Of a DNA stretch of 64,000 nt, positions 60,739 through 61,142 are shown piece after piece. The translations under genes and the position numbers were made by a program. The notes beneath the pieces are model-generated. The model searched no databases, was not told the origin of the DNA, and worked only from the letters and a program-made list of their open reading frames with translations. Position 1 is the first letter of the stretch; every line of letters begins with the position of its first letter. This DNA comes from Escherichia coli O127:H6 str. E2348/69. GTDB lineage: Bacteria > Pseudomonadota > Gammaproteobacteria > Enterobacterales > Enterobacteriaceae. Location of the stretch: the NCBI RefSeq assembly GCF_000026545.1, contig NC_011601.1, one strand, 5' to 3'.

Positions 60739-61142
60739 GCCAGACGCAGCACATTCTTGCATTCGACGTGCTGCGCCTTTATTTATTATCAGCCGCAAAT
60801 GTCTTGTCCTTAGACGCTCTTTCCACATGCGCCACAAGAAACCTCTATTCCAGTGACACAATTATGCCTGATTATTTCCCTAGCCCGGAATATGAATAAA
60901 AACATCAAATAAGATGAAATTATCAAAATATTAATGTTGCGTCTGAGGTCGTAACAACATCCGACGTGGTGATATGTCAAATGAGACACTCTGATGGTCA
61001 AAGGGTTTATAGAGTTTACAGATCGTGGATGGCAGAAAACTTTCAGAATCAGGTTTCCATTTTAAACCAGAAATTAAGTGAGTTTGTCCCATCCATGCCC
61101 CACGCGGTGAGATCGGATGTAATCAACAACAGGTTACACAAC

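Follow-up and report, generated by a model that had tools for sequence, protein, structure and literature searches.

Both e14 and phage 21 integrate in icd, at att sites that lie within the 3′ end of a coding gene, and the phage provides the replacement codons. In Escherichia coli K-12, a phage remnant has been annotated at the end of another gene, fliE: in MG1655, the interval between the yedL and fliE stop codons contains intG (b1936, “cryptic prophage PR-G”) and yedN (b4495, a pseudogene on the minus strand), the degraded gene of an EspR-type leucine-rich-repeat effector. The gene order of K-12 is yedK-yedL-yedN-integrase remnant-fliE. E. coli O157:H7 shares the flanks of this region (yedL, the segments termed L and R below, the integrase remnant, and fliE) but differs in having two intact genes for leucine-rich-repeat T3SS effectors (DUF5503 + LRR), espR3 and espR4, in a tandem duplication of ~1.96 kb; the order there is yedL-espR3-[integrase remnant + 3′ part of yedL]-espR4-integrase remnant-fliE. 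Finally, an intact P22-like prophage of strain UTAK-1 and the attP of Escherichia phage IdasGreatGrand have the core sequence found at this locus, with an integrase adjoining the core.

Here, we compare with these systems the yedL-fliE locus of the enteropathogenic E. coli O127:H6 strain E2348/69 (gene order yedL-integrase remnant-fliE, as in TOE17 and AST85), contained in a 64-kb stretch of DNA referred to below as the window. The spacer from the yedL stop to the fliE stop measures 404 bp (window 60739–61142), whereas the same two stops enclose 1,620 bp in MG1655. The first-pass annotation of this DNA had reported a gap of about 400 bp, had placed yedN, yedM, and intG at this point in K-12, and had interpreted the spacer as the ancestral empty site of a K-12 islet. 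The size of the gap was borne out, MG1655 does not share the short spacer, and the gene order given for K-12 is correct, with yedN and intG in place and yedM dropped from the current MG1655 annotation. The features of the locus are as follows.

59408–61126, no strand: Escherichia-specific segment from the yedF terminator to the att core (yedK, yedL, spacer, and integrase remnant).
59480–60148, plus strand: yedK, SOS-response-associated peptidase (SRAP; Pfam PF02586, E 7.5e-51; PGAP).
60208–60810, plus strand: yedL block of ~0.6 kb (yedL and stem-loop), which many E. coli genomes lack in its entirety.
60259–60738, plus strand: yedL, GNAT acetyltransferase (PF00583, E 9e-14).
60742–60778, plus strand: stem-loop followed by a T-rich run (folding, haplotype alignment).
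60811–60877, no strand: segment L, flanking the espR/yedN position on its 3′ side, kept in yedL-less genomes too (haplotype alignment).
60874–60878, no strand: espR-less junction, where K-12 has an additional 1,212 bp (yedN) and O157 has espR3/espR4 (BLAST breakpoints).
60878–60962, no strand: segment R, located upstream of espR in espR-bearing genomes, 34% GC.
60963–61124, plus strand: integrase remnant, the 3′-terminal 54 codons of a tyrosine integrase gene, directed towards fliE (tblastn, DNA identity, PGAP, MG1655 annotation).
61127–61162, no strand: phage att core (attL-type junction) over the fliE stop and last six codons (phage match, duplication in UTAK-1).
61143–61457, minus strand: fliE.

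According to our analysis, the spacer is very probably a composite, eroded prophage scar next to fliE and not an empty site, because the integrase tail and the att core with its phage arm persist in it. It is made up of four parts: the 3′ end of yedL with a terminator-like hairpin; segments L and R, which flank espR-type genes in other E. coli and are directly joined here; the C-terminal 54 codons of a tyrosine integrase, the same remnant as K-12 intG; and the att core overlapping the fliE stop and final six codons.

The alignment with MG1655 locates the difference between the two strains precisely. Window 60200–60877 corresponds to MG1655 2010541–2011218 (BLAST, 96.2% identity) and window 60874–61500 to 2012431–2013057 (94.1%, ungapped); the entire length difference is a single K-12 block of 1,212 bp (2011219–2012430, 33.7% GC) that holds yedN plus ~79 bp upstream of it, and colinearity is maintained on either side. 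The compact junction was thereby confirmed, but only the yedN block differs and the remainder is colinear; the yedN/yedM/intG islet, taken in the first-pass annotation to be missing, is absent as far as yedN is concerned, but the intG remnant is retained.

Repeat collapse or another assembly artefact would also produce a compact junction. We found no point in its support and regard its probability as negligible: the complete E2348/69 genome NZ_CP059840.2 is 100% identical over 1,301 bp (60200–61500), 35 more genomes reach an identity of 99% or higher in their best match, and repeats are absent at the junction. Moreover, yedL and fliE lie in one compact match, spanning at least 80% of window 60200–61500, in 132 genomes.

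The earlier statement that the spacer contains no integrase-like ORF proved wrong. The spacer has no long ORF, and the integrase ORF itself is not intact (54 of ~434 codons are left). The translated segment 60963–61124 matches amino acids 378–431 of the IdasGreatGrand integrase (434 aa; Pfam Arm-DNA-bind_2 + Phage_integrase) with 75.9% identity over 54 aa (tblastn, E 2e-20), and the DNA identity to the phage gene is 89%. PGAP annotates an integrase pseudogene in E2348/69 at window 60978–61118. In MG1655, intG occupies 2012502–2012663, inside the ungapped 94.1% alignment; the two remnants share position and orientation beside the fliE stop, are colinear, and have 94% DNA identity, and K-12 differs in its yedN block, absent here, and in its fliE stop codon. 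Judged by these sequences, 60963–61124 is the orthologue of K-12 intG, the remnant of a tyrosine phage integrase gene. The Pfam (PF00589) and NCBIfam profiles gave no match to the remnant of 57–59 aa alone, because the fragment is short and lies mostly past the end of the Pfam domain (aa 203–396 of the phage protein). The remnant was found in 5,160 of the 5,426 complete genomes (~95% of E. coli); the integrase tail is likewise kept in E. albertii and in E69, a divergent genome.

The attachment-site core that the first-pass annotation had proposed to look for is present at 61127–61162 and overlaps the fliE end. In IdasGreatGrand, the sequence CAACAGGTTACAAAACCTACACCTGCATGGACATCA starts 1 bp after the integrase stop and matches this interval at 27 of 29 positions (61127–61155), or 32 of 36 when extended to 61162; the core occurs once in the window, versus 0 occurrences expected by chance. 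One of the four mismatches in 36 falls in the fliE stop codon, which is TAA in E2348/69 (window 61143–61145) and TAG in K-12, the IdasGreatGrand attP, and UTAK-1. The phage attP codes for M-S-M-Q-V-stop, the C-terminus of FliE; since attP carries the C-terminal codons of the host, fliE stays intact on integration. The site differs from those of e14 and phage 21 in its host gene, fliE instead of icd, and in that only about six codons are replaced.

Natural lysogens were found at the same position. UTAK-1 carries its intact prophage (~38.7 kb) with fliE on one side and the old integrase remnant on the other; the junction on the fliE side reads ...ACCTACACCTGCATGGACATCA/CTTCCTG and that on the far side ...ACCTACACCTGCATGCTCATCA/TATGACC, with the core repeated at both. 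Past the old remnant, this genome has an intact espR-like gene and then yedK. The prophage itself (locus L023, 1125–39830) includes an integrase, an excisionase, a lambda-like early/regulatory set, a P22-type capsid, a tailspike, and two tRNAs. Unlike UTAK-1, the window contains no prophage, only the 54 terminal integrase codons. A near-full-length integrase match was obtained in eight genomes, with the gene annotated beside fliE in six; in the remaining two, fliE is not under the match. Three of the eight integrases are 98.4% identical to that of IdasGreatGrand and five ~78%, suggesting that this integrase family serves more than one type of phage, mostly at this site. Together, the UTAK-1 lysogen and the adjoining integrases indicate that the fliE 3′ end is a real attB that is still used and that intG was left behind by a previous integration. 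As far as genome sequences can tell, this attB serves extant phages in those other genomes, and the E2348/69 core is a variant of it.

An unoccupied arrangement of the locus is seen in outgroups. Ten loci were collected by a search with a degenerate pattern of the fliE 3′ end, and the outgroups among them are few (E. albertii, E69, two Citrobacter, and two subspecies of Salmonella). DNA homology to E. albertii, Salmonella, and Citrobacter ends at window 59372–59407 (in E. albertii, on the yedF side, at 59407, just past the yedF terminator hairpin) and restarts at 61056 in E. albertii and at 61140–61143 in Salmonella and Citrobacter. No YedK, YedL, or EspR was found by tblastn in the outgroup loci of E. 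albertii, Salmonella, and Citrobacter, and the integrase remnant is absent from the Citrobacter and Salmonella loci. In Citrobacter sedlakii, yedF and fliE are 65 bp apart; the distance is ~750–790 bp in the two Salmonella subspecies, with an unrelated small ORF in S. arizonae, the one inspected, and ~1.5 kb in a Citrobacter MAG. E. albertii keeps the integrase tail and the core, preceded by ~2.6 kb of other DNA, and in E69, a divergent “E. coli,” the integrase tail lies beside still different genes. The island of E. albertii (locus L007, 837–1145, minus strand) contains a gene for a PerC-family transcriptional activator (PF06069, E 2e-43).

Judging from these layouts, the truly unoccupied state looks like yedF, a short spacer, and fliE, and the E2348/69 spacer does not represent it. 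An attachment site of the K-12 yedN/yedM/intG islet that had never been occupied would fit a spacer that is short (404 bp), has no long ORF, and lacks the 1,212-bp yedN block. However, the intG-equivalent remnant and a phage arm are present, with 94% identity to K-12, and a real unoccupied outgroup site, as in C. sedlakii (yedF, 65 bp, fliE), looks different, which makes this reading extremely improbable. A naive empty attB was ruled out by the remnant at 60963–61124 and the phage arm immediately to the left of the core, and the proposal of an ancestral empty site fails on the same features and on the different appearance of the unoccupied outgroup sites. Overall, the observation made in the first-pass annotation was real in part, and its interpretation as a whole is partly supported.

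The homology of the remnant, the identity of the att core, the natural lysogens, and the scar-free outgroups are established by sequence comparison. On the preferred reading of an eroded scar, a temperate phage with an IdasGreatGrand-type integrase would have entered the fliE 3′ end, with phage DNA replacing the last fliE codons; nearly the whole prophage would then have been lost, leaving the integrase tail behind, and the scarred site would remain an attB for extant phages. We infer this order of events, as well as any arrival of yedK, yedL, and espR with a phage element. EspR had no tblastn match among 50,697 phage records, the island showed no homology to the UTAK-1 prophage or the integrase-region fragment of IdasGreatGrand (blastn, tblastx), and the left 242 bp of the spacer gave just a chance-level 31-bp match to phages. 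The absence of an EspR match in phages and of homology to the island leaves a prophage origin of yedK, yedL, and espR unsupported. On the left, where the Escherichia-specific segment begins, no second att core was found (29-mer with up to three mismatches, single site), and local alignment there scored under the shuffle mean. One decayed prophage extending from yedK as far as the integrase remnant is likewise unsupported: no second core (attR) and no cargo in related phages were found.

The second component of the scar is the region where other strains carry espR or yedN. The spacer aligns to the espR flanks only, and EspR3 and EspR4 gave no tblastn match in the whole 64-kb window (E cutoff 0.01). 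The match of HCM-25C-3 to 60833–60877 ends at the start of the espR pseudogene annotation, with a 2-nt overlap. The junction GCCTGATTATTTCCCTAGCCCGG (60877/60878) is identical in E2348/69, TOE17, AST85, and Ec1120, and the espR-less haplotypes that share it diverge by 6–10% elsewhere in the spacer; an identical junction in divergent haplotypes speaks for a single old event and subsequent recombination. With a 120-bp probe centred on the junction and a contiguous match required, the espR-less junction was found in 1,147 of 5,426 complete genomes. E2348/69 carries the espR-less allele of a variable region, which is a common, ordinary strain polymorphism. No terminal repeats or target duplications were detected around the espR block, with 1–4 bp of ambiguous microhomology at most.

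A 37-bp patch at 60878–60914 shows ~65% identity between the espR4/K-12-type and the espR3/KOr021-type alleles (R and R′; locus L019 of KOr021 and unit 1 of L003), and the sequence flanking it is 94–100% identical. On its left side, the patch stops at the espR-less junction, to within 2 bp.

The direction of this event can be read in two ways. The L/R junction at 60877/60878 may be the pre-insertion state, with an espR/yedN cassette having later joined the eroded scar by illegitimate or homology-facilitated recombination, so that E2348/69 never had espR; we give this reading somewhat less than an even chance. It accounts for one exact junction in all espR-less haplotypes, which otherwise differ by 6–10%, for a gene-exact indel that runs from the espR stop codon to ~79 bp upstream of the espR start, and for the foreign-looking composition of the block (33.7% GC). 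The left edge of the R/R′ patch at the junction is what would be expected of a cassette edge, and a one-off random deletion does not predict it. Furthermore, the 60-bp L and R halves match three places among the O157 matches listed, all at the fliE locus, so there is no sign that L and R accompany espR copies elsewhere. Against insertion, the block is devoid of terminal repeats, a target-site duplication, and mobile-element features, and segment R is as low in GC (34%) as the espR block itself. In addition, the espR copies of K-12, KOr021, and HCM-25C-3 are decaying pseudogenes, and bacterial genomes are biased towards deletion; the decay together with this bias makes a deletion likely. All four combinations of yedL and espR presence and absence exist, which suggests that recombination has scrambled the phylogenetic signal. 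Weighing a single old deletion of espR against its never having been present, we lean slightly towards the deletion.

The yedL block varies in a similar manner. In Ec1120 (yedK-integrase remnant-fliE), only 59 bp lie between yedK and sequence equal to window 60811 onward, so that the yedL block is absent, and HCM-25C-3 also lacks yedL (yedK-espR pseudogene-fliE). The stem-loop noted after yedL in the first-pass annotation is present: its arms (60742–60752 and 60768–60778; 11 nt, 91% complementary, 15-nt loop, dG −14.7 kcal/mol) are followed by CCTTTATTTATT. Its folding is only mildly better than that of shuffled sequences (z −1.76; 12 of 200 shuffles fold as well). The hairpin is conserved in every aligned yedL-bearing haplotype and has gone, with the ~0.6-kb block, from yedL-less genomes. 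By its predicted folding, it is probably the yedL terminator. A scan of the spacer for consensus promoters and terminators returned nothing, and the yedL hairpin escaped it because the loop is long. No Rfam family reached threshold in 59300–61700, CssrB scoring 20.8 bits on the yedL hairpin against its gathering score of 76, and the tRNA search of the region was negative. In AST85 (locus L018, 2519–2575, equal to window 60757–60813), PGAP places an 18-aa “cyclic lactone autoinducer peptide” ORF over the hairpin; this call on a short ORF is probably spurious.

Other arrangements were encountered among E. coli genomes. The ~1.96-kb duplication of O157 (locus L003 of TW14359, 10629–14211) also copies the 3′ part of yedL and the integrase remnant; at its inner joint, the att core (left part, …TCAACAGGT) runs into yedL at an internal position (window-equivalent 60407). 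Of the integrase remnants, the one inside the O157 duplication retains 13 bp (AAACAAGCCAGGT) that the fliE-adjacent copies of K-12, O157, and E2348/69 have lost. In AZ159 (locus L004, 5532–9000), a truncated yedK is followed by an IS200/IS605 transposase gene and by DLP12-like ybcM, ybcL, and emrE, which adjoin a shorter integrase remnant (match from window 61007). This gene order is as in DLP12 and is consistent with a lambdoid ancestor of the scar. In strain 23AR1183 (locus L021, 6044–7900), IS5 lies beside a truncated espR pseudogene, followed by a jump to dsrB/yodD; a deletion appears to have removed fliE together with the fli operon downstream of it, and the strain is therefore probably non-motile. 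Elsewhere in the window, yedD (57337–57749, minus strand) is a frameshifted pseudogene in E2348/69 and is intact in K-12 and O157.

A broader reading would treat the fliE 3′ end of Escherichia as a hotspot of phage integration that is old, still in use, and scarred in almost all strains. The last codons and the 3′ flank of fliE would then come from phages in nearly every strain, and the gene-exact variation of yedL and espR, together with the R/R′ patch, would be put down to cassette-like exchange that recurred at the scar and not to random deletion. As a whole, we consider this reading rather doubtful. The scar itself is largely known from annotation, since K-12 intG is already assigned to “cryptic prophage PR-G.” A literature search on intG/yedN/fliE, EspR1/3/4, and fliE as an integration site returned only virulence-gene lists and false matches to the author name “Flieger.”

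In conclusion, the chief value of these results lies in the correct annotation of the locus: E2348/69 does not preserve a pristine site. Neither at the fliE locus nor elsewhere in the 64-kb window does this EPEC strain carry an effector gene of the EspR family. The mapping of the core to ~36 bp for IdasGreatGrand-type and P22-like phages helps in calling prophage boundaries and also aids the interpretation of variation near the flagellar region III genes.
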